A stretch of 64,000 nt of DNA from Candidatus Yanofskybacteria bacterium RIFCSPLOWO2_01_FULL_39_28. Lineage in GTDB: Bacteria > Patescibacteriota > Minisyncoccia > 2-02-FULL-40-12 > GWA2-44-9. The notes beneath the pieces were generated by a model that was given only the letters and a program-made list of their open reading frames with translations, did no database searches and had not been told where the DNA came from. The position numbers were made by a program, and so were the translations under genes. This document shows, piece by piece, positions 4,612 through 51,784 of the stretch. Each line of letters starts with the position of its first letter. Position 1 is the first letter of the stretch. The stretch is from positions 13,921-77,920 of the forward strand of contig MGKE01000002.1 of the NCBI GenBank assembly GCA_001794635.1, given 5' to 3'.

Positions 4612-4655
4612 AAATCCCTCACCAGTTTTTTTAAAAAACTGGTGAGGGATTTTTA
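4612..4655. terminator. Bidirectional intrinsic terminator between convergent genes
   Basis: Perfect 19-bp stem, AAATCCCTCACCAGTTTTT / AAAAACTGGTGAGGGATTT, with a 3-nt loop. A/T runs flank both sides. Confidence 0.8.
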
Positions 4656-11205: not shown

Positions 11206-11580
11206 CATGGTGTTAATCAAAATCCTCACAAGAGCTTGATTTCTGGGGCACGGCGTAAATTTCTGCTGAAATTTCGCCTTTTACTCGGTTCAGCCAACCT
11301 CCGTAAATCCCCATAAATCAACTCTTATGATGATTTTGTTTTCTGTTGTTAGTATAAATTCAGATAGTCGGCATAGCAGGTATTTTGAGGGATTTTTTAT
11401 TGGGTACAAATGAGTGAAGCCTTTGGCCTATGAGGGGATTTACGGACCGCGACGGCGGGAGTAAAAGATGAAATTTTAGCAAAAATTTACATCGTGCCCC
11501 TCATAGGCTAAGGCTGAACGATTTTATGTCGTGCCCGAAAAATACCTGCTATGCCGACTAGATGGTAATTAGCACCATAC
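11206..11580 (+). repeat. Foldback repeat element, copy 1 (candidate structured ncRNA or MITE)
   Basis: ORF-free. Positions 11209-11335 match 51494-51620 at 125 of 127 positions. Termini pair (GGTGTTAAT / ATTAGCACC), helices are nested, and the 3' half is a diverged inverted copy of the 5' half. Confidence 0.8.
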
Positions 11581-12924: not shown

Positions 12925-14865
12925 GTGTCGGGATTAAAGACAAAGCTCAAAATATTATTTGGCATGCGTGATGATGGAGACATGACCGAACCAATGAATT
13001 TAATGCTTTTGTCATCGTTGGCTAAAAAGAACGGTTGTTTAACTGACATTTGGGTAATGGAGAGGGACGATCTAAGGGATACAATTCAAAAAATAAAACC
13101 AGATATTATTGCCTTTTCCGGCATTACCGGTTCGCATAAATATTATGTCCAGGCCGCTCATAACATTAAAGAAATTAATCCGAAAATCAAAGTTATTGTC
13201 GGTGGGCCTCATTTTACTTTTTTCCCGGGTGAGATTTTGAGGCATGAGTGCATAGATTTTTTGTGTGTTGGCGAGGGGGACGATGCTTGGGTAGAATGGA
13301 CTTTGGCCTTTGCTAATAACGGCGATACAAACAATATTCCCAACATTGTGAGCAAGGAAAATGCGCAAAGAGTTCTGACTAACCCTCAATCTGGCAACTT
13401 AATTCTAATCGGCGGTTTAAAGAATGAGGGTTTGAAATCTGTCGGCAATAGCGTTGGCATGGTGGATTATGTTCTAAATCCGGCATTTATGCGTGGAAGA
13501 AAAACTAATCTTGATGATTTACCGTTTCTGGACAGGGGACTGGTTTACGATAATACCGAATTCAAATATCGCTATAAACGCACCATTATGGCTTCTCGCG
13601 GCTGTCCTTTCCGGTGTACTTATTGTTTTGAGCATCAGTGGAATGAAATGTATCGCGGGGTTAAAAATTCAGGAAGTATCCGCCAATTATACGGCGTTGA
13701 TCGTTTGATTTCTGAACTTGAAGAATTTGTTGGACAATACGACACAAGATTTATTAAGTTTTATGACGATGTTTTTCCTCCGTTTCCTAATCCCGCAGAA
13801 AGGGAGTGGCATCAGCAGTTTTGCGAAGAATATCCAAAAAGGATAGGTCTTCCGTTCCACGTTTTAACTCGGTGTGATCTGGTTGTTAATCTTTTGGACA
13901 ATCACAAGTTGGATATTCTTAGAGATTGGAAAAAAGCGGGAATGGCTTCAGTTACGATGTCAATAGAATCCGGTAATCCGTTTATAAGAGATCATGTCAT
14001 TATTCGTGATATGACAGGAAATGATATCAATCGGGCGTTCAAACATGCTTGGGATGTTGGTCTGACCACTTTTCCCAACACCATTCTTGGTATTCCGGCC
14101 CCCCTCTTGCCTAAAGTTGATGACGCGCGTTTTGACGACAAAATGAGAGAAGTCGGTCGTCAGTGCAAGATTTTAAAAGAAATAAATCATCGCAAGATTG
14201 ATCTTCAAGAGGTTCAGAAAATTGCTGAACAGTGGTTTACCGACAAATACGAACGTCGCAGATATATTCTGAACTTTTTAAAATCCGTCGGTTTACGAGA
14301 AGATTTCAAGTCATACGACAGAGAATCCGTTAAGTTTACGTTGGCCCAGAGACCTGGCTTTCCTGAATTTCCTATTTTAGCCCCCTATCCTAAGACCAAG
14401 GCGACCGAATGGGCCATTGCCATAGGTGCTTTTGACGGTAATTTTGAGAAACTTCACGCCAGTTACCAAGAAGTGTCTTATCTTGATTGTTATGATGACG
14501 AATACAAAAAAGTGATGCATAATTTTGAGCTGTTGGGCAGTTTTTTGTCTCTTTTTGCCGGAAGCCGTAACCGCTTTATGCAATGGCTGAACCCATATAT
14601 GCAGATGCTATGTCTTAACTATCTGGCCGAAATCACCAATTCAAAAGCAGTCAGGTTCTATGGCTGGCTTTATACAACTTCCAAGGCCTACATGCATTTA
14701 ACCAGGATATATCCGATGAGATATAGCTCATGGGAAAAGTGGCGTTTTTTCAAACAAATGACAGGACTTGACTTCTGGAAGCAGTTTAAGGAGAGAAAAA
14801 AGACTAAAACAATTTTACGTTCAGAGCGGCCGGGCCAGACTCTTGGCGGTCCGCCATCTTTGTAG
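12925..14865 (+). CDS. Cobalamin-binding-domain (class B) radical SAM enzyme
   Basis: MASRGCPFRCTYC cluster motif after a B12-type domain (PDIIAFSGITGSHKYY...KVIVGGPHFTFFP). GTG start 7 nt after GAGGTG. Confidence 0.8.
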   Translation: MSGLKTKLKILFGMRDDGDMTEPMNLMLLSSLAKKNGCLTDIWVMERDDLRDTIQKIKPDIIAFSGITGSHKYYVQAAHNIKEINPKIKVIVGGPHFTFFPGEILRHECIDFLCVGEGDDAWVEWTLAFANNGDTNNIPNIVSKENAQRVLTNPQSGNLILIGGLKNEGLKSVGNSVGMVDYVLNPAFMRGRKTNLDDLPFLDRGLVYDNTEFKYRYKRTIMASRGCPFRCTYCFEHQWNEMYRGVKNSGSIRQLYGVDRLISELEEFVGQYDTRFIKFYDDVFPPFPNPAEREWHQQFCEEYPKRIGLPFHVLTRCDLVVNLLDNHKLDILRDWKKAGMASVTMSIESGNPFIRDHVIIRDMTGNDINRAFKHAWDVGLTTFPNTILGIPAPLLPKVDDARFDDKMREVGRQCKILKEINHRKIDLQEVQKIAEQWFTDKYERRRYILNFLKSVGLREDFKSYDRESVKFTLAQRPGFPEFPILAPYPKTKATEWAIAIGAFDGNFEKLHASYQEVSYLDCYDDEYKKVMHNFELLGSFLSLFAGSRNRFMQWLNPYMQMLCLNYLAEITNSKAVRFYGWLYTTSKAYMHLTRIYPMRYSSWEKWRFFKQMTGLDFWKQFKERKKTKTILRSERPGQTLGGPPSL

Positions 14866-26418: not shown

Positions 26419-27510
26419 TTGACACCATTTGATACCATTAAATATATGATACCCAGAAATAACAAAAAAATAAATCCCGTTAGAAGTAGCCGTGCCGCGG
26501 TCCTCCGGACTCGTGTCTCTGGCGTGAGCGAGACTTCTAACGGGATAAAAGTTTTGGTTGTCGGTGGAGCCGGATATATTGGAGGAGCAGTGACAGAACT
26601 TTTGATTGCAAAAAAGATTCCTTTCAGTGTCTACGACGCGCTGGTTTACGAACATCAATACCTTAAGCCGGTTGATTTTATCTATGGCGACATAAGGGAT
26701 TATAAAAAACTCAAACAGGTTTTGCCAAAATACACCCACGTTATTTGGTTGGCTGCTCTTGTCGGCGATCCCGGTTGCCAAATAGATGAATGGATGACAA
26801 GAGCCGTCAATGTAGAACCGATTAAGTGGCTTGTTAAAAATTACAAAGGCCGAATATTGTTTGCTTCAACCTGTTCTGTTTATGGTAAAAGCGACAAAAT
26901 GCTTGATGAGTCGTCGCCCTTGAATCCGCTATCATTTTACGCAAAAAGCAAAATTGAGGCAGAATCATATTTAGTCAAACATCCTAATACCTTAATATAT
27001 CGCATTGGCACTGCTTTTGGTCTTTCGGACAAGCATTCAAGAGTTCGTTTAGACTTGGCAGTAAATATGTTAAGTTTTAAAGCCGTCAATGAAGGCAAAT
27101 TGACTTATTTTGGAGGAACACAGTGGAGACCTTTTATTCACGTTAAAGATATTGCTATGGCCTTTGTGAACGGCATCAATAACAAGGCAAAAGGAATTCA
27201 CAATCTTAATAGAGAAAATATTAGTATTGGGGACTTGGCTAAAAAAATAGGCAAACTGACAAAATGTAAAATACAAGCAACCGAACACCCGTTTCAAGAC
27301 GAGCGTAACTATCATGTCAGCGCAGATAAAGCTAGAAAAGCCGGACTTCTTAAGGGATTGAAATACAACCTAGAGCATGGCATACAAGACATATCGTCAT
27401 TGGCTAGTTTTTCAAGAGTATCACCGGAAGAATCTACGGTTCATTTTAATGATAAGCACTTAGCTGGCTTGATGAAGGATAATAAAAAAATATGGAAAAA
27501 GCGGATTTAA
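26419..27510 (+). CDS. NAD-dependent sugar epimerase/dehydratase with an atypical N-terminal extension containing a palindromic element
   Basis: Rossmann motif VLVVGGAGYIGG, with STCSVYG and YAKSK catalytic motifs. About 40 residues precede the Rossmann strand and include the element at 26474-26546. The true start is uncertain (TTG 26419, ATG 26446 or TTG 26554). Confidence 0.7.
   Translation: MTPFDTIKYMIPRNNKKINPVRSSRAAVLRTRVSGVSETSNGIKVLVVGGAGYIGGAVTELLIAKKIPFSVYDALVYEHQYLKPVDFIYGDIRDYKKLKQVLPKYTHVIWLAALVGDPGCQIDEWMTRAVNVEPIKWLVKNYKGRILFASTCSVYGKSDKMLDESSPLNPLSFYAKSKIEAESYLVKHPNTLIYRIGTAFGLSDKHSRVRLDLAVNMLSFKAVNEGKLTYFGGTQWRPFIHVKDIAMAFVNGINNKAKGIHNLNRENISIGDLAKKIGKLTKCKIQATEHPFQDERNYHVSADKARKAGLLKGLKYNLEHGIQDISSLASFSRVSPEESTVHFNDKHLAGLMKDNKKIWKKRI
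26474..26546 (+). repeat. GC-rich palindromic element, copy A, about 73 nt, read in frame
   Basis: 14-bp outer stem ATCCCGTTAGAAGT / ACTTCTAACGGGAT enclosing two small hairpins (GGTCC-TCC-GGACT; CTCGTGTC-TCT-GGCGTGAG). Homologous to the reverse complement of 34353-34425. Confidence 0.8.
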
Positions 27511-28442: not shown

Positions 28443-28524
28443 CCTAGCCACTAGCCATTAGTGCCTAGCGACTAGTATAATACAAATTTGACCAATTACT
28501 AGTGGCTAGTCGCTAGTGGCTATA
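28443..28524. repeat. CTAG-rich nested inverted repeat
   Basis: TAGCCACTAG and CTAGCGACTAG units pair with CTAGTCGCTAG and CTAGTGGCTA downstream, with 7 CTAG tetramers in about 80 bp. It spans the gap between the GNAT and synthase genes and the last codons of the synthase. Confidence 0.6.
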
Positions 28525-29576
28525 TGTTTTAATTTAAGCGGTGTGCCTTTTTCAAGATCAACCCCGGATCTTTTACCGATAACCCGATTATAATATTTAG
28601 GTTCAAGGCCGTGTCCTGGGCGAATTGAACGAATATTCTGCGGGGTGAACTTTTGCCCTTTTCTGATATCCTCAACAACAAAAAGTGATTTTCTGAAGAC
28701 AATATTTTCAGATTCTTTTACCCCGGCTCCATAAGATGGATTTCCTAGGGCGGATTCGGTATTTCTAACAGAATTAACAAGGTTTTTAAATTCATCCGGT
28801 TCAAGAGAAAAAGCAGCATCCGGTCCACCTTCTTTTCTAGATAAAATAATATGCTTCTCAATTATAGAAGCGCCAAGGGCGACAGAACTGATCGGGACAG
28901 TAACCCCGGGACTATGGTCAGAAATACCGACAACTGTTCTGAATTTTTTTATTAAGTCGGGGATGGTTTTTAGATTCATCTCTTTATATTCAGCCGGATA
29001 TGAGCTTATACAATGTAAAATAGCGACTGATGGGCAGCCATTTTCTTTTAGTGTTTTAATGGCCAGCTTAAGTTCCGGCAAAGACGACATGCCTCGGGAA
29101 ATAATTACGGGCTTCTTTGTTTGGCCAATTTTTTTTAAGAGGGGAATATCAACAACTTCAAATGATGCTACCTTATAGATAGACATATTTATTTTTTCTA
29201 AAAAATCTACGGCAGTATTGTCAAAGGGGGTTGAGAAACAGATTAATCCTCTTGATTCGGCGTATTTTTTGAGTTTCGGCTGCCATCCCCAAGGCATATA
29301 GGCCTTTCTATATAAATCGTAAAGAGTTTGTCCTTTCCAGGCGTCATTTACTTTTATTTGGAAATATTCCTTGTTTGAGTTTATGGTTATCGTGTCTGGG
29401 GTATAGGTTTGCAATTTTATTGCATCTACGCCGGCTTTGGCCGTTGCGTCAATTATCTTATATGCTTTTTTTATATCGTGTCCATGATTAGCTGATATCT
29501 CGGCAATTATAAAAACAGGATGACCAGGTCCAATCCTTCTGATTTTACCTTTTATTTTTATAACTAAATCAACCAT
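28506..29576 (-). CDS. Nonulosonic acid synthase (PseI/NeuB/LegI family) with a C-terminal SAF domain
   Basis: FIIAEISANHGHDIKKAYKIIDATAKAGVDAIKLQTY, ISDHSPG and a C-terminal antifreeze-like domain (VVEDIRKGQKFTPQNIRSIRPG). Confidence 0.85.
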   Translation of the reverse strand: MVDLVIKIKGKIRRIGPGHPVFIIAEISANHGHDIKKAYKIIDATAKAGVDAIKLQTYTPDTITINSNKEYFQIKVNDAWKGQTLYDLYRKAYMPWGWQPKLKKYAESRGLICFSTPFDNTAVDFLEKINMSIYKVASFEVVDIPLLKKIGQTKKPVIISRGMSSLPELKLAIKTLKENGCPSVAILHCISSYPAEYKEMNLKTIPDLIKKFRTVVGISDHSPGVTVPISSVALGASIIEKHIILSRKEGGPDAAFSLEPDEFKNLVNSVRNTESALGNPSYGAGVKESENIVFRKSLFVVEDIRKGQKFTPQNIRSIRPGHGLEPKYYNRVIGKRSGVDLEKGTPLKLKHIATSD

Positions 29577-32678: not shown

Positions 32679-34531
32679 TTTGGTAAATGTATTCTTGTTT
32701 CTTTTTTTAGCAAAGTAATTAATTTTTTGTCAGTTTTGTATTTATCGGACAGTTGTCCGTTTATTGTTGGAATATCAGGATTTTTATCAAGAACTTCGTA
32801 GATGTTTTTTATGTTCGGCTCTTTTGAACCGAGTTTGTCGAATAATGCTTTTAACATATCAAGATCTTCTTGAAAATCTAAGGTCAAGCGGTAACTTCTC
32901 ATCCATTCCTTAGGCAGTTCTACGGAGTCAACTTGGAAGATATCTTTGTTAGTTAGCATGTACCAAGTCATGTATTCGGAATGTTTAGCATCGCCAAGAT
33001 AAGCAATAACTTTTTTGAGAGTATTTGTGTTATATATCTCACTAATGAGACCGGTTACATATTCTTTTGGTCCGGTATAATCGTTGCCCTTCTCAAAATG
33101 TTTTTGAAGTAAAAATTCTGCCATCTCATAGGAAACTATCGGACAATCACCGGTAATTCGTATTATTACATCAAGGTTATATTTTTCAGCTACGCCTAAG
33201 TAGCGGAGCATGACATCCTCGGGGTCTCCGGCAAAGAAGCGGATTTTATGTTTTAAGGCATATTTTTTTAGAATCTGATCCTCTTCAATAGTTGAAGTTG
33301 CTAAAATTATCTCATCGGCTGATTTAATTTTTTTGGCGTTCAAAATACATCTTTCAATTGAGGCCAGTCCCTGAATAAGCAAGATGGCTTTATGTTTCAA
33401 TCTGGTTGATTTCATTCGGCAAGCAATGATTACCCCAACCCCGGCTTTTTTTAGACCGCCTTTTGTTATTGGCTTGCCGGGCTTTATATCATTTTTGAGT
33501 ACATATTTTTTCTTCATATATTCTTTAATTTCGGCCACGGTTAATCCTTCTTGTCCGGTTCTTCTAAATTCAAAATTTTTAAAATTAATTACGTCACCAG
33601 CCCGCATGGCGACAGCGGCAATCGGTTTTTCAATCGTTGTTTTGAGATAGTTTGCTTCTTTGTCGGGAATCAACTTGGTTCCCAATATTTTTTCGCATTC
33701 TTTGAGGTTGTATAATAGATGAGAACATTCATCTGGTTCAATTGCCGATTGAAAGTCATATTTTGTTTTATTTCGGTCCAGACAGACATGTTTCTCAATA
33801 TGTCCGGCTCCAGCCAATACTGCGTAAACAGGCACGTCAAAAGCAAGGGGGGATCTGCCATCTACGTGGTCAGCATATGATACTGTGTATTCTGGGAATT
33901 CTTTTCTTAAAATTTGTATTTTACTTATGGTCAGGTCTTCTTTATCTGTTGGATAGGCCTGGAAACCTGCCTGGAGTATAATCTCATTTTTGGTGAAATA
34001 ATTTGATCTAAAGTCGTCCAGTGTTTTTCTTATATTATCAATCTCGCATCCGGCAATATTTAATATAACTTTAATCTTTTTGTCTCCGATTGTTTCAGAA
34101 AGAGACTTCAACACTTTTAAATTGCCTAATACCGATGATTGAAGTTTTATCCCGGTAACTAGCGATATATTATCTTTGAGTACCTCAACACTATAAAGAT
34201 CAAAAACATCTATCCAAACATCAAAACCTTTTTCTTTTGTGTGAACGAATATTTTTTTCCAATTTTGTTTATCAATAAAAAATTTTACGTAAACCTTATA
34301 ATATTCGTAATCTTTTAAGGCAATCTCGTTGTATTTGAACACTTGAAACTTCACCCCGTACGAAGTCGCGCTCGCGCCTTTGGCGCGAGTCCTTCGGACC
34401 GTGGCGCGGCTACTTCGTACGGGGTTAATACCGTTATTGTCGGTACGGGGCAGGGTATTTATTAGGTCATAAATGTATTTCTTTGACCCACCGTGAGAGT
34501 TAGCTAGTTCATAAAGTAAATAAGTTCTCAT
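32675..34531 (-). CDS. Fusion of a NeuB-like synthase domain (plus SAF) with an SpsF/NeuA-type cytidylyltransferase domain; the synthase domain carries a palindromic insertion
   Basis: N-terminal YELANSHGGS...GVKFQVF and SAF-like AMRAGDVINFKNFEFRRTG. C-terminal GVIIACRMKSTRLKHKAIL (CTP_transf_3-like). Residues INPVRSSRATVRRTRAKGASATSY are encoded by the element at 34353-34425. Confidence 0.7.
   Translation of the reverse strand: MRTYLLYELANSHGGSKKYIYDLINTLPRTDNNGINPVRSSRATVRRTRAKGASATSYGVKFQVFKYNEIALKDYEYYKVYVKFFIDKQNWKKIFVHTKEKGFDVWIDVFDLYSVEVLKDNISLVTGIKLQSSVLGNLKVLKSLSETIGDKKIKVILNIAGCEIDNIRKTLDDFRSNYFTKNEIILQAGFQAYPTDKEDLTISKIQILRKEFPEYTVSYADHVDGRSPLAFDVPVYAVLAGAGHIEKHVCLDRNKTKYDFQSAIEPDECSHLLYNLKECEKILGTKLIPDKEANYLKTTIEKPIAAVAMRAGDVINFKNFEFRRTGQEGLTVAEIKEYMKKKYVLKNDIKPGKPITKGGLKKAGVGVIIACRMKSTRLKHKAILLIQGLASIERCILNAKKIKSADEIILATSTIEEDQILKKYALKHKIRFFAGDPEDVMLRYLGVAEKYNLDVIIRITGDCPIVSYEMAEFLLQKHFEKGNDYTGPKEYVTGLISEIYNTNTLKKVIAYLGDAKHSEYMTWYMLTNKDIFQVDSVELPKEWMRSYRLTLDFQEDLDMLKALFDKLGSKEPNIKNIYEVLDKNPDIPTINGQLSDKYKTDKKLITLLKKETRIHLPK
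34353..34425 (-). repeat. GC-rich palindromic element, copy B, about 73 nt, read in frame
   Basis: Outer stem ACCCCGTACGAAGT / ACTTCGTACGGGGT (minus-strand sense) enclosing GGTCC-GAA-GGACT and CTCGCGCC-AAA-GGCGCGAG. Same orientation and reading frame relative to its host gene as copy A. Confidence 0.8.
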
Positions 34532-40175: not shown

Positions 40176-42329
40176 TTAGTGGTGTCCTGCCAGATCTGGT
40201 ATTGGATTTTTGTTTCCGTACAGGTAAGCGCCTCGGCGATTGCACCACCAGACCATCTTTTCATACCACTCTTCCCATGAGTCCCATCTGGCGTTGGTGT
40301 TAGCCGAATCAGTTTTCGTAGTTCTATCAATTGTGTAGCTGTATGTTCCTTGTTTAAGCTCCAACTTTTGTTCTATGAGAGCTGCCCTATAAATTTCCCA
40401 AACATTGTAAGATAAAGATAACTCTAAGTCACTTGTCTGGAACGGTAATTTAATCAAAGATCCGTTTAGACTCATAGCGTCCAAAAGTGGTCCATTTGAA
40501 TGATCAGAACCTGTTAAATTAACCATCATTTCTTGAGCTTCTTCATATAGTTGTCTAAACTTATCTTCTCTGCAGATTTTAATAAATGCATATTCATCCG
40601 GTGGCCACAGAATGTCAAGACACTCCTTTGAATGGTAGAATTCTTCTTGCGTGCCATTTTGGATACCTCTTGAAAATTCATGGAAGAAATCCAGGATTTC
40701 AGCAAAAACCGGAAACTTATCTGAATGTTGAGAGTTTTCCATAAACGTTTCAAATATTCTGCGATAAGGAATTCCATAAACTTCATGCAAGATCATAATC
40801 GGTATCTGGAGGAGTTTGTTGAAATATATCAGTCCTACCATATAGCAAAACGATCGGGTTTTAACCCATGCTTCTCTGGGCATGGTGTTAGTTGCTATGA
40901 CAAGTTCTTGGTATTCCTCAATGCCACTGATAGATGCATTTTTCTTGCCGTGGATATTGGTTATCGGTGTTCTAACCGTTTCCATTCCGTACTCTTCTTG
41001 ATATTCGGGATCGCCCATTTCTGCGTTAGGTAATATGGAAAGATTATTAAACTGAATTCTGTCGTGCTGTCCATCTTCTATGATCTCAGAAACTCCATTC
41101 AATACGCTTTCATATGTTTCCATTGGCATACCTAAGATGTAGTCCGTCATTGTATATACACCTTTAGCTCTTAGTTCCTTCTGAATTCCTTGGTAATCTT
41201 CCGTTTTCATATTTTCTCTTCGAACAGCCTTTAGGGTATCAAAATTTTTTGACTGGATTGACATTACTGTAGCTTTGTTAAGTCCGGCTTTTTCCAGAAT
41301 TTCAAGGGCTACAAATGAGTGGGGCTTGGGATTTTTTGCATTTTGAACAGATATTCCCTCCGGAAAACCAGTAGCCAGTTTAGCGTCAGCTAATGTTTGC
41401 GCAATTTGCACGTCCTGTTTGGGAAGACCAAAATTAGCATTGGCAATAAAAATATAAGGAACTCTTTTATTTGCGAACCACCAAGCTTCTTGCATAACCC
41501 GATCAATTGGGAAGAGGCTTACTTTGTCCTCTATGGCTCCGCCCCAATCGCAGTAAGTACATTGGTAGGGACATCCCCGGTCAGTTTCCCACATAGCAAT
41601 CCATTTTTGATCAGGATACGCCGTTAGGAGTGCATCAAATGTTCCGCTTAGATATGGAGAGGGGACACCCGATAAGTCATGCATTCGTTCAAGTTTAGGA
41701 TTGTGGCGGAAGATTCCCTCATTGTCTATATAACTTATTGAAGGCAGATTAGATTTATTGGCAAGCCCGTCAATGGCTACTTGTTCTAAAATATGGCGGA
41801 ACACTCTTTCACCTTCACCATGAACAGCGATGTCTATGTAAGGATGATTCCTGTGAAATTTTTCGGTCATGCCCATTCTTTTACGTTTTAATTCATCTGG
41901 CCTGGGATCAGTTTTTTTGATTCTCTGGAATTGTTTTTTACTATCTGGAACATGAGGACCGCCGACAATCACTAATCTGTCCGGGTACCGTCTTTTAAAT
42001 TCTCTGGCTATGGCCATAGAATTTTCAAAGTTCCAGACGTATAAACTGATGGCTAGTAAATCGGCATCACTTAGCTTTTCAAGCGCTTCCTCAATTGGCA
42101 TAAAAGTATACAACGACAAAAGAAACCTGAAATAATCAGGATAGGATAAGTATGTCTGGGCATAAATCTGATTCATGCCCACTGAAAGAGGAAAATAGCA
42201 TTGTTCAGAAAAGCTATTATTTAACTGTATTAGTCCAATATTTATTTTCTTTGCCGGTGGTTTTACGGCGATTGGCAAAGGCGGACTTTCATTCGGCTGG
42301 ATAACTTTGAGCATTTTCGGCTCTGACAT
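40176..42329 (-). CDS. Cobalamin-binding-domain (class B) radical SAM enzyme with a long C-terminal extension
   Basis: WETDRGCPYQCTYCDWG after a B12-type domain (LLAISLYVWNF...LVIVGGPHVP). The C-terminal extension is about 250 aa. Confidence 0.8.
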   Translation of the reverse strand: MSEPKMLKVIQPNESPPLPIAVKPPAKKINIGLIQLNNSFSEQCYFPLSVGMNQIYAQTYLSYPDYFRFLLSLYTFMPIEEALEKLSDADLLAISLYVWNFENSMAIAREFKRRYPDRLVIVGGPHVPDSKKQFQRIKKTDPRPDELKRKRMGMTEKFHRNHPYIDIAVHGEGERVFRHILEQVAIDGLANKSNLPSISYIDNEGIFRHNPKLERMHDLSGVPSPYLSGTFDALLTAYPDQKWIAMWETDRGCPYQCTYCDWGGAIEDKVSLFPIDRVMQEAWWFANKRVPYIFIANANFGLPKQDVQIAQTLADAKLATGFPEGISVQNAKNPKPHSFVALEILEKAGLNKATVMSIQSKNFDTLKAVRRENMKTEDYQGIQKELRAKGVYTMTDYILGMPMETYESVLNGVSEIIEDGQHDRIQFNNLSILPNAEMGDPEYQEEYGMETVRTPITNIHGKKNASISGIEEYQELVIATNTMPREAWVKTRSFCYMVGLIYFNKLLQIPIMILHEVYGIPYRRIFETFMENSQHSDKFPVFAEILDFFHEFSRGIQNGTQEEFYHSKECLDILWPPDEYAFIKICREDKFRQLYEEAQEMMVNLTGSDHSNGPLLDAMSLNGSLIKLPFQTSDLELSLSYNVWEIYRAALIEQKLELKQGTYSYTIDRTTKTDSANTNARWDSWEEWYEKMVWWCNRRGAYLYGNKNPIPDLAGHH

Positions 42330-51490: not shown

Positions 51491-51784
51491 CGTGGTGCTA
51501 ATCAAAATCCTCACAAGAGCTTGATTTCTGGGGCACGGCGTAAATTTCTGCTGAAATTTCGCCTTTTACTCGGTTCAGCCAACCTCCGTAAATCCCCATA
51601 AATCAACTCTTATGAGGATTTAGTCTTTACCTGTGTCTATATCAATTAATCTGGTCAGTATAGTAGGTATTTTGAGGGATTTACGGACCGCGACGGCGGG
51701 AGTAAAAGACAAAATTCTAGCAAGAATTTATGTCGTGCCCGAAAAATACCTGCTATGCTGACCAGATGGTAATTAGCACTATAT
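51491..51784 (+). repeat. Foldback repeat element, copy 2 (candidate structured ncRNA or MITE)
   Basis: Positions 51494-51620 match 11209-11335 at 125 of 127 positions. Termini pair (GGTGCTAAT / ATTAGCACT). About 81 nt shorter than copy 1. Confidence 0.8.

Follow-up and report, generated by a model that had tools for sequence, protein, structure and literature searches.

In a window of 64,000 nucleotides from Candidatus Yanofskybacteria bacterium RIFCSPLOWO2_01_FULL_39_28 (contig MGKE01000002.1, forward strand, positions 13,921 to 77,920; coordinates below are those of the window unless a locus is named), a GC-rich palindromic segment of 71 nt sits in frame within the gene of a NeuB-like synthase. 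Very probably, this segment is a copy of a non-autonomous foldback DNA transposon, similar to the MITEs (miniature transposable elements with inverted repeats), that circulates in the Patescibacteria, the ultra-small groundwater bacteria of the candidate phyla radiation (CPR). Palindromic mini-transposons of this kind, frame-neutral and protein-coding, form a new family in Patescibacteria, which resembles the Rickettsia palindromic elements (RPEs) in behaviour and a MITE in anatomy. An earlier note, made from the letters of the window alone, had proposed an RPE-like in-frame palindromic insertion, and this proposal is supported by orthologues, by further copies and by a functional-looking host, the likeness to RPEs being one of behaviour.

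Two copies in a nonulosonic acid gene cluster

Both copies of the element in the window are located inside a pseudaminic/nonulosonic acid gene cluster, and the features that concern them are as follows (TIR, terminal inverted repeat; TSD, target-site duplication).

34354..34424, minus strand: copy 1, 71 nt, covariance-model score 95.1 bits; the minus strand is the modelled 'sense' orientation
Within copy 1: 13-nt TIR, CCCCGTACGAAGT / ACTTCGTACGGGG, plus a 5-bp inner stem and two hairpins
34425..34428, minus strand: upstream TSD of copy 1 in gene orientation, TTAA, matching the empty site in orthologue L147
34350..34353, minus strand: downstream TSD of copy 1, TGAA in gene orientation, one substitution from TTAA
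26475..26545, plus strand: copy 2, with the terminal-repeat variant TCCCGTTAGAAGT, covariance-model score 83.3 bits
26471..26474, plus strand: left TSD of copy 2, TAAA, perfect over 4 bp
26546..26549, plus strand: right TSD of copy 2, TAAA
32675..34531, minus strand: host gene 1, 618 aa, NeuB-like synthase fused to a cytidylyltransferase (Pfam PF03102 and PF02348)
26446..27510, plus strand: host gene 2, NAD-dependent epimerase/dehydratase (PF01370 from residue 36)
28506..29576, minus strand: paralogous synthase (pseudaminic acid synthase) without insert, an internal control

Copy 1 has arms of 14 nt, ACCCCGTACGAAGT (34353-34366) and ACTTCGTACGGGGT (34412-34425), around two GC hairpins, and its G+C content is about 70%, compared with 36-42% in the window, which agrees with the structure first described. 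It is predicted to fold with -49 kcal/mol (z = -6.5), whereas shuffled sequences give -27.5 ± 3.3. The palindrome had been given a length of about 73 nt; the palindrome is real, but the mobile unit is 71 nt long and the extra A/T is part of the 4-bp flanking repeat. The second copy reported at 26474-26546, with the same orientation and the same frame relative to its host, was also seen, and shows about 80% identity to copy 1 across the element itself. Copy 2 shows more decay: its inner stem has a G-A mismatch, and three of the pairs in hairpin 2 are G·T. Its differences in the arms are paired (GTTAG/CTAAC and a T...A outer pair). The description of these differences as compensatory holds in so far as they are paired in the arms, but they are mainly variants of TIR subfamilies that recur in other genomes. 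A pattern search of the window returned two copies only (chance expectation 0.00 from 100 shuffles), and a covariance model run with filters off returned precisely the same two. A third candidate at 41619 was a partial match by chance. Other repeats in the window had raised the idea of a cyanobacterial origin, which was rejected: no HIP1 repeat was present, and the proteins of the window carry the name Candidatus Yanofskybacteria. The window matches contig MGJN01000001.1 (GCA_001794285.1) from the Rifle aquifer.

The odd segment of the 618-aa fusion protein is present as originally stated, with the protein reading ...TDNNG-INPVRSSRATVRRTRAKGASATSYG-VKFQVFKY, and the paralogue used as a control indeed reads AKAGVDAIKLQTY at the equivalent place, with nothing in between. 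The insertion in host protein 1 comprises about 25 residues (roughly 35-60). In the AlphaFold2 prediction of this protein from 67 sequences, the mean predicted local distance difference test score (pLDDT) was 91, and values below 50 were found only at residues 33-55, between the helix at 17-26 (α1) and the strand at 58-64 (β2). The insert of this single modelled host protein is thus predicted to be a disordered surface loop in an otherwise confident fold, which is the arrangement that the note had suggested looking for, although its wording 'inside the barrel' has to be replaced by the α1-β2 surface loop. In TIM barrels generally, loops that lead from an α-helix to a β-strand are on the side away from the active site. 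The model also matches structures of NeuB/PseI/SpsE and of cytidylyltransferases (Foldseek). The 618-aa protein was found, identical, on 15 contigs, and therefore the allele is stable in that population. Taken with the intact open reading frame (ORF), the predicted fold and the structural matches, host gene 1 looks functional, and not like the pseudogene that had been considered. In host gene 2, the segment encodes NPVRSSRAAVLRTRVSGVSETSNG and is placed 9 codons past the start, just ahead of Rossmann strand β1 (KVLVVGGAGYIGG). Because solved epimerases start aligning only at query residue 35, at their own residue 2-13 (residue 4 in the best match, 6vo6_A), this insert can be assigned to the N-terminal tail before β1.

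Comparison with orthologues indicates the direction of the change. About 45 of the 55 closest orthologues of the NeuB/cytidylyltransferase fusion that include the N-terminus have no insert (...EKN-TGIKFQVF...), and these insert-free proteins are 590-600 aa long; the segment is therefore an insertion and not the ancestral loop that the earlier note had named as one way in which it could be refuted. One orthologue, L147, retains the intact TTAA target as an empty site, GGT GGT A[TTAA]G TTT, and the window reads GGT A[TTAA] + 71 nt + [TGAA]G TTT at the same site. From these two sequences it follows that the event added 71 nt and a second 4-bp copy of the target, which gives 75 nt or 25 codons.

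Small palindromic insertions recur in the α1-β2 loop of host protein 1, which is a hot spot for them. In the orthologues P0002 and P0016 (L144:1108-1169, 62 nt, and L145:434-501, 68 nt), other in-frame palindromic elements occupy the exact TTAA of copy 1, and both are flanked by TTAA/TAAA. The 62-nt insert (CCCCCACACC...GGTGTGGGGG) and the 68-nt insert (CCCCCACACTCACTTTA...TAAAGTGAGTGTGGGGG) belong to a separate, AT-richer element family with CCCC...GGGG ends as well, and an insert related to this family (NPHTH...VSVG) is present at a different site in P0019. Two more inserts, independent of these, were seen in other lineages: a member of the 77-nt subfamily with the repeats TCCCGTTAGAGGT / ACCTCTAACGGGA lies in the same loop two codons upstream in P0030 (L160:593-669), and a 33-nt GC hairpin encoding TRLRQGFGGQA lies in this loop in P0028 (L146).

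Distribution, target sites and length rule of the family

Using the core GCCGNGCCNCGGTCCNNNGGACTCG as the query, a scan of species-representative genomes returned 29 loci, 26 of which are true copies and 3 of which are chance matches in high-GC genomes. All true matches were in metagenome-assembled genomes of Patescibacteria, from Saccharibacteria, Yanofsky-, Nomura-, Niyogi-, Harrison- and Sungiibacteria and from unclassified Patescibacteria, and near-identical 71-mers were present in each of these six named groups. Using the right end GCGCGACTTCTAACGGGG, 111 loci, mostly from groundwater, were obtained in a metagenome scan. The further copies that the earlier note had called for are thus found in several Patescibacteria classes and in metagenomes, and independent projects (Rifle, Hainich, NC groundwater and others) have recovered the element with variation in its sequence. 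From these collection scans, 128 unique elements at as many insertion sites were compiled, and they have in common the 13-nt TIR CCCCGTTAGAAGT / ACTTCTAACGGGG, with variants. In viral contigs, the right-end 18-mer had no matches, and 12 matches of the left-end 16-mer were due to chance, with no partner repeat; plasmid matches were chance GC-rich partials only, at E values of at least 0.6. When the four translated frames were concatenated and compared with a set of 5.8 billion proteins, only 15 weak matches were returned by a search whose word indexing and E-value limits are ill-suited to inserts of 25 aa.

The length is fixed: 25 of the 27 copies from genomes measure 71 nt. In the metagenome set, subfamilies with the same 13-nt TIR and differing interiors were found at 50, 52, 68, 71, 74, 77 and 80 nt and more, the 74-nt subfamily being the 71-nt form plus 3 nt. 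Across the subfamilies the elements range from 46 to 161 nt, well below 500 bp, and have no coding capacity of their own, as is usual for MITEs. Nested composites can be resolved into their parts (125 = 71+50+4, 131 = 68+59+4 and 152 = 71+77+4), and the spacing in tandem arrays equals the element length plus 4. Head-to-tail arrays of this kind, from the 50/52- and 74-nt subfamilies with a 4-bp repeat between units (spacing 54, 56 and 78 nt), were all intergenic (L035:3677-3784, L041, L080, L093:6511-6614, L140 and L076:462-613). Five contigs (L017, L024, L037, L045 and L058) end in or beside an element, and this repeat may break metagenome assemblies. An ORF for an N6 DNA methylase (L114:4784-6271) contains ...HPVRDSKLSNGA..., a stretch of about 30 nt that has the look of a minimal element, barely more than two TIRs.

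The flanks of the elements carry a transposition signature. A perfect 4-bp TSD was present in 69 of the 128 unique elements, compared with a chance expectation of 1/256, and the remaining flank pairs mostly had 1-2 mismatches, with about 20 pairs differing at 3-4 positions. More than ten different tetranucleotides were duplicated: TCAA/TTGA in 33 cases, TGAA/TTCA in 9, TAAA/TTTA in 8, TCCA/TGGA in 7, and CAAG, CGAG, TTAA and others in the rest. TTAA, at which window copy 1 is inserted, accounts for 2 of the 69 perfect TSDs. The targets are mostly TNNA, and the reconstructed ones are symmetric, G(0.48)|T(0.86) N N A(0.86)|C(0.48), or roughly GTYRAC. Every copy has [C/T]CCCG...CGGG[G/A] at its ends. 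The TIRs, the TSD of fixed length and variable sequence and the symmetric target together point to a dimeric cut-and-paste transposase of the DDE type.

The structure predicted by RNAalifold consists of an outer stem (13 bp), an inner stem (5 bp) and two hairpins, and in 74 distinct sequences 97.9% of the cells were paired (98.4% in the outer stem), with double changes in 17 of 29 pairs, which was reached by 0 of 500 shuffles; slid controls dropped to 30-45% paired. Representatives of the 71-, 68-, 52-, 74- and 77-nt subfamilies, as well as the two CCCCCACAC-type elements of L144 and L145, all adopt one plan when folded, in which an outer stem encloses one or two hairpins. The mismatches comprised 42 G·T, which are wobble pairs on the modelled strand, and 30 A·C, which are wobble pairs on the opposite strand. 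Since these counts are similar, no RNA strand is singled out, strand-specific RNA selection is not supported, and the constraint looks like that on a DNA-level palindrome. Hairpin loops appear as complementary pairs across copies, and the interior is inverted at one locus, so that quasipalindrome template switching could make 'compensatory' changes without selection. At this locus, an orthologous intergenic site with conserved flanks in gapped alignment (L050:1828-1898 compared with L056:2579-2649 and L141:880-950), the 45-nt interior is oppositely oriented, one hairpin loop (CCT) is not inverted, and the element flanks are inverted (CTCG/CGAG), not direct. This suggests either an in-place inversion between the TIRs or repeated insertion at one site.

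The length of the elements follows a rule that preserves reading frames. The sum of length and 4 is divisible by three in 107 of the 128 elements (3n elements). When a long ORF was defined as a frame that runs open for 40 codons or more to either side and elements with evaluable flanks were considered, 49 of 99 3n elements were located in long ORFs, compared with 0 of 17 others (Fisher p = 3.5e-5). The abundant subfamilies of 50, 68, 71, 74, 80 and 119 nt all obey 3n-4; the 52-nt form (+4 = 56) was found in intergenic tandem arrays only, and variants with indels of ±1-2 nt (67, 69, 70 and 73 nt) were never deep within a long ORF. As 71+4 gives 75, insertion of the common form keeps the reading frame. 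Stop codons are present in one phase per strand only (CCC CGT TAG), leaving four of the six frames stop-free, and the encoded 25 extra residues are rich in Arg, Ser, Ala and Gly. The 75-nt addition and the four stop-free frames thus explain how copies persist in genes. The in-gene copies are most likely translated, to judge from their sequences, because copies removed at the RNA level would need neither the length rule nor the open frames.

According to Pfam, the element hosts include GyrA, LeuRS, IleRS, DNA polymerase III alpha (DnaE), a UvrD-type helicase, a P-type ATPase and an FAD-linked oxidase, and one more copy is in HrcA. Copies occur in all four open frames, in both orientations and in intergenic DNA. 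The common orientation and frame of the two window copies do not extend to the family: 25 of 33 in-gene 71-nt copies are antisense, in the phase C CCC GTT AGA (binomial p ~3e-4), and encode DPVRSRARAKGASPEDRGAATSNGV, the most hydrophilic of the four peptides, whereas the window copies have the rarer sense orientation. Peptide tolerance and mRNA hairpin strength are two possibilities for this bias. By Pfam, three element-bearing housekeeping genes also carry other large inserts, namely an intein in GyrA (L030:4405-7998), a NUDIX domain inside LeuRS (L027:3889-6966) and a histidine-phosphatase domain inside IleRS (L043:3401-7003).

Proposed mechanism and alternative explanations

In the mechanism that we propose, a transposase supplied in trans would recognise the TIRs and cut the symmetric target with a 4-bp stagger; an enzyme of the piggyBac/IS1380 type is a lead only, suggested by the CCC termini and the TTAA-like targets. 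The 3n-4 length and the stop-free frames would reflect selection that acts on the lineage of the element, the genomes in which it lives being about 90% coding. The foldback structure may be kept by a need of the transposition machinery or by quasipalindrome template switching, and individual copies would probably be neutral passengers, not functional modules. Several observations weigh against such a transposon. No transposase or autonomous element was found between TIR pairs 600-4000 nt apart or near any copy, in about 0.95 Mb of flanking DNA. The distant TIR pairs that were considered as an autonomous element were all separate small copies or chance matches. Of the ORFs between them, those with an annotation (HrcA, a surface protein and a methylase) are not transposases, and the others are small and unannotated. 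The copy number looks low, with 1-3 exact-core matches per representative genome, unlike classical MITE bursts. In L018, L114, L037, L058 and L110, a constant CGAG right flank is accompanied by a non-matching left flank (CTTG, TTTG), and neither this subset nor the locus with inverted CTCG/CGAG flanks is explained by a simple TSD. In addition, covariation of the inner hairpins is not needed by a standard cut-and-paste mechanism that recognises only the TIRs.

Going further, one may speculate, with rather more doubt than confidence, that the Patescibacteria harbour a superfamily of 'frame-neutral' transposons adapted to near-absent intergenic space, which would combine 3n-4 lengths, four stop-free frames and disordered hydrophilic peptides with piggyBac/IS1380-like seamless excision. 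If this is true, seamless excision would make loop insertions in the essential GyrA, DnaE, LeuRS and IleRS reversible, and the Patescibacteria would be the second known bacterial lineage after Rickettsia with systematic protein-coding palindromes, and the first with a readable transposition signature.

The features of the family can also be read in other ways. In an unlikely alternative, an HUH (Y1) transposase would move a hairpin element in the form of single-stranded DNA, the enzyme being either of the type that mobilises repetitive extragenic palindromic sequences (REPs) through REP-associated tyrosine transposases (RAYTs) or of the IS200/IS605-derived 'PATE' type. Such an element would insert beside a guide-specified tetranucleotide, and the same tetranucleotide at the element end would mimic a TSD; an empty site does not separate the two models if the two tetranucleotides are the same. 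The conserved, covarying hairpins on both strands (42 G·T and 30 A·C, with no strand bias), the dominance of TCAA in the flanks and the copies in which the right flank is always CGAG and the left one does not match are consistent with this model, and GTAG adjoins the GC palindrome (AAGTAGCCGCGCCGCGG), as in GTAG-tagged REPs (PMC3733652). However, near-identical elements are flanked by more than ten different matched tetranucleotides, for example CAAG (L019), TCCA (L030) and CGGG (L025), which fits duplication of whichever target was hit and not guide-specified sites. Perfect 13-nt TIRs with a symmetric G|TNNA|C target are typical of DDE enzymes, and about half of the evaluable 3n copies (49/99) are within long ORFs, whereas REPs are extragenic and IS200/IS605 elements have no terminal inverted repeats.

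A functional structured RNA (cis-regulatory hairpin, small RNA or ribozyme) that lies in coding sequence by chance would account for the very stable fold (-49 kcal/mol, z = -6.5) and the strong covariation in four helices, but it is very improbable: Rfam gave no gathering-score match in the window and none even at E <= 1 on two loci with consensus copies, the copies occur in both orientations relative to their hosts, in four frames and in intergenic DNA, there is no wobble asymmetry between the strands, and the 4-bp TSDs and the unrelated interiors with the same termini point to mobility at the DNA level. Still less credence can be given to an intervening sequence that is cut from the mRNA or bypassed by the ribosome, leaving a protein without the 25 residues. 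The compact stable hairpin and the precise boundaries would suit it, and insertions in rRNA genes are a known feature of CPR genomes; yet removal would make length and stop codons irrelevant, and the copies in long ORFs are only 3n and stop-free (49/99 vs 0/17), and no ribozyme or intron family was matched. The recurrence of the peptide NPVRSSRA..TS.G in two window proteins could be taken as a sign of an ancestral or functional loop under protein-level selection, but this reading is scarcely tenable when orthologues lack the segment, the conservation is at the DNA level across four reading frames and intergenic DNA, and the AlphaFold2 insert is disordered. An assembly artefact, which we consider equally implausible, is contradicted by the presence of the element, with sequence variation, in the independent projects.

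Relation to known systems and other repeats

Compared with known systems, the element combines features that are usually found apart. RPEs (Ogata et al. 2000, 2002; summed up in PMC10969869 and PMC3184786) are, like this element, in-frame palindromes in unrelated functional genes of bacteria with small genomes. They too encode an extra peptide judged to be compatible with the fold, and a mobilising enzyme is known for neither. RPEs are about 105-150 nt long (about 105-146 nt in PMC3184786), compared with 71 nt here. The present element is also GC-rich, resides in an unrelated host phylum (Patescibacteria) at low copy number per genome, and has 13-nt TIRs, a 4-bp TSD, a defined target and a 3n-4 length across several subfamilies. 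We would therefore not file it as an RPE, but describe it as RPE-like in behaviour alone, set apart by size and host. A 2024 review of prokaryotic MITEs presents RPEs as the outstanding case of in-frame insertion and leaves Patescibacteria unmentioned. The impression of the earlier note that no equivalent had been described holds in Rfam and in the literature, where searches on CPR bacteria with MITE or RPE, including the terminal-repeat sequence, found no publication on this family.

With bacterial MITEs such as Correia, ERIC, RUP and the Coxiella QMITE (PMC10969869, PMC5896051), the element shares a small non-coding size, TIRs and TSDs, and they are likewise dispersed, sometimes nested and sometimes fused in frame with host ORFs. 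Size, TIRs, a TSD of fixed length and many dispersed sites (128) all place the family among MITEs in anatomy. Most MITEs, however, are mainly intergenic, and those in genes usually disrupt or extend the gene, whereas 49 of 99 evaluable 3n copies here are internal and frame-neutral; in addition, no parent insertion sequence is known for this element. REPs and the mosaic elements built from them (BIMEs), with their RAYTs (PMC3733652), also have a short GC-rich palindrome and GTAG beside it; REPs, however, are extragenic, 20-40 nt long and without long TIRs and TSDs.

The piggyBac elements and IS1380, their prokaryotic relatives, share with the family the CCC...GGG termini, a 4-bp TSD at TTAA-like targets and a palindromic sub-terminal sequence beside the TIRs, and variant piggyBac duplications of TCAA and TAAA have been reported (PMC7351741, PMC10813416). 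The target preferred by this element is TCAA/TTGA (G|TNNA|C) and not strictly TTAA, and no piggyBac- or IS1380-like transposase was found near any copy. We treat a relationship to piggyBac/IS1380 as a lead only. Yeast mitochondrial GC clusters and the double-hairpin elements of fungal mitochondrial DNA are also short GC-rich mobile palindromes in AT-rich, gene-dense genomes, and they are occasionally in frame. They differ in residing in organelle genomes, in their sequences and in TSDs that are different or unclear, and we know of no terminal repeat that they share with the present family.

Selfish DNA inserted in frame in working genes has been represented by essentially one textbook case, the Rickettsia RPEs, the mechanism of which was never resolved. 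The same behaviour is now seen in a radiation that has no relation to Rickettsia, is very large and is little understood, and the TIRs, the TSD, the target and the length rule make its spread and tolerance testable. These elements inflate and diversify CPR proteins, essential enzymes included, and they may mark recent DNA exchange between CPR classes.

Other repeats were also observed in the window. An unrelated intergenic repeat of about 120-130 nt with 30-nt TIRs (ATCTGGTCAGTATAGTAGGTATTTTGAGGG / CCCGAAAAATACCTGCTATGCTGACCAGAT) is present at 51649-51767 and at about 11375-11560, and a palindromic insert of about 89 nt, TTGGCCTATGAGGGG...CCCCTCATAGGCTAA, is nested in its second copy at 11423-11511. 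At 28445-28522, an imperfect 37-nt palindrome rich in TAGCCACTAG motifs extends across the intergenic gap and into the 3' end of the ORF for pseudaminic acid synthase (28506-29576), and at 4612-4652 a perfect inverted repeat of 20 nt (AAATCCCTCACCAGTTTTTT / AAAAAACTGGTGAGGGATTT) resembles a terminator.

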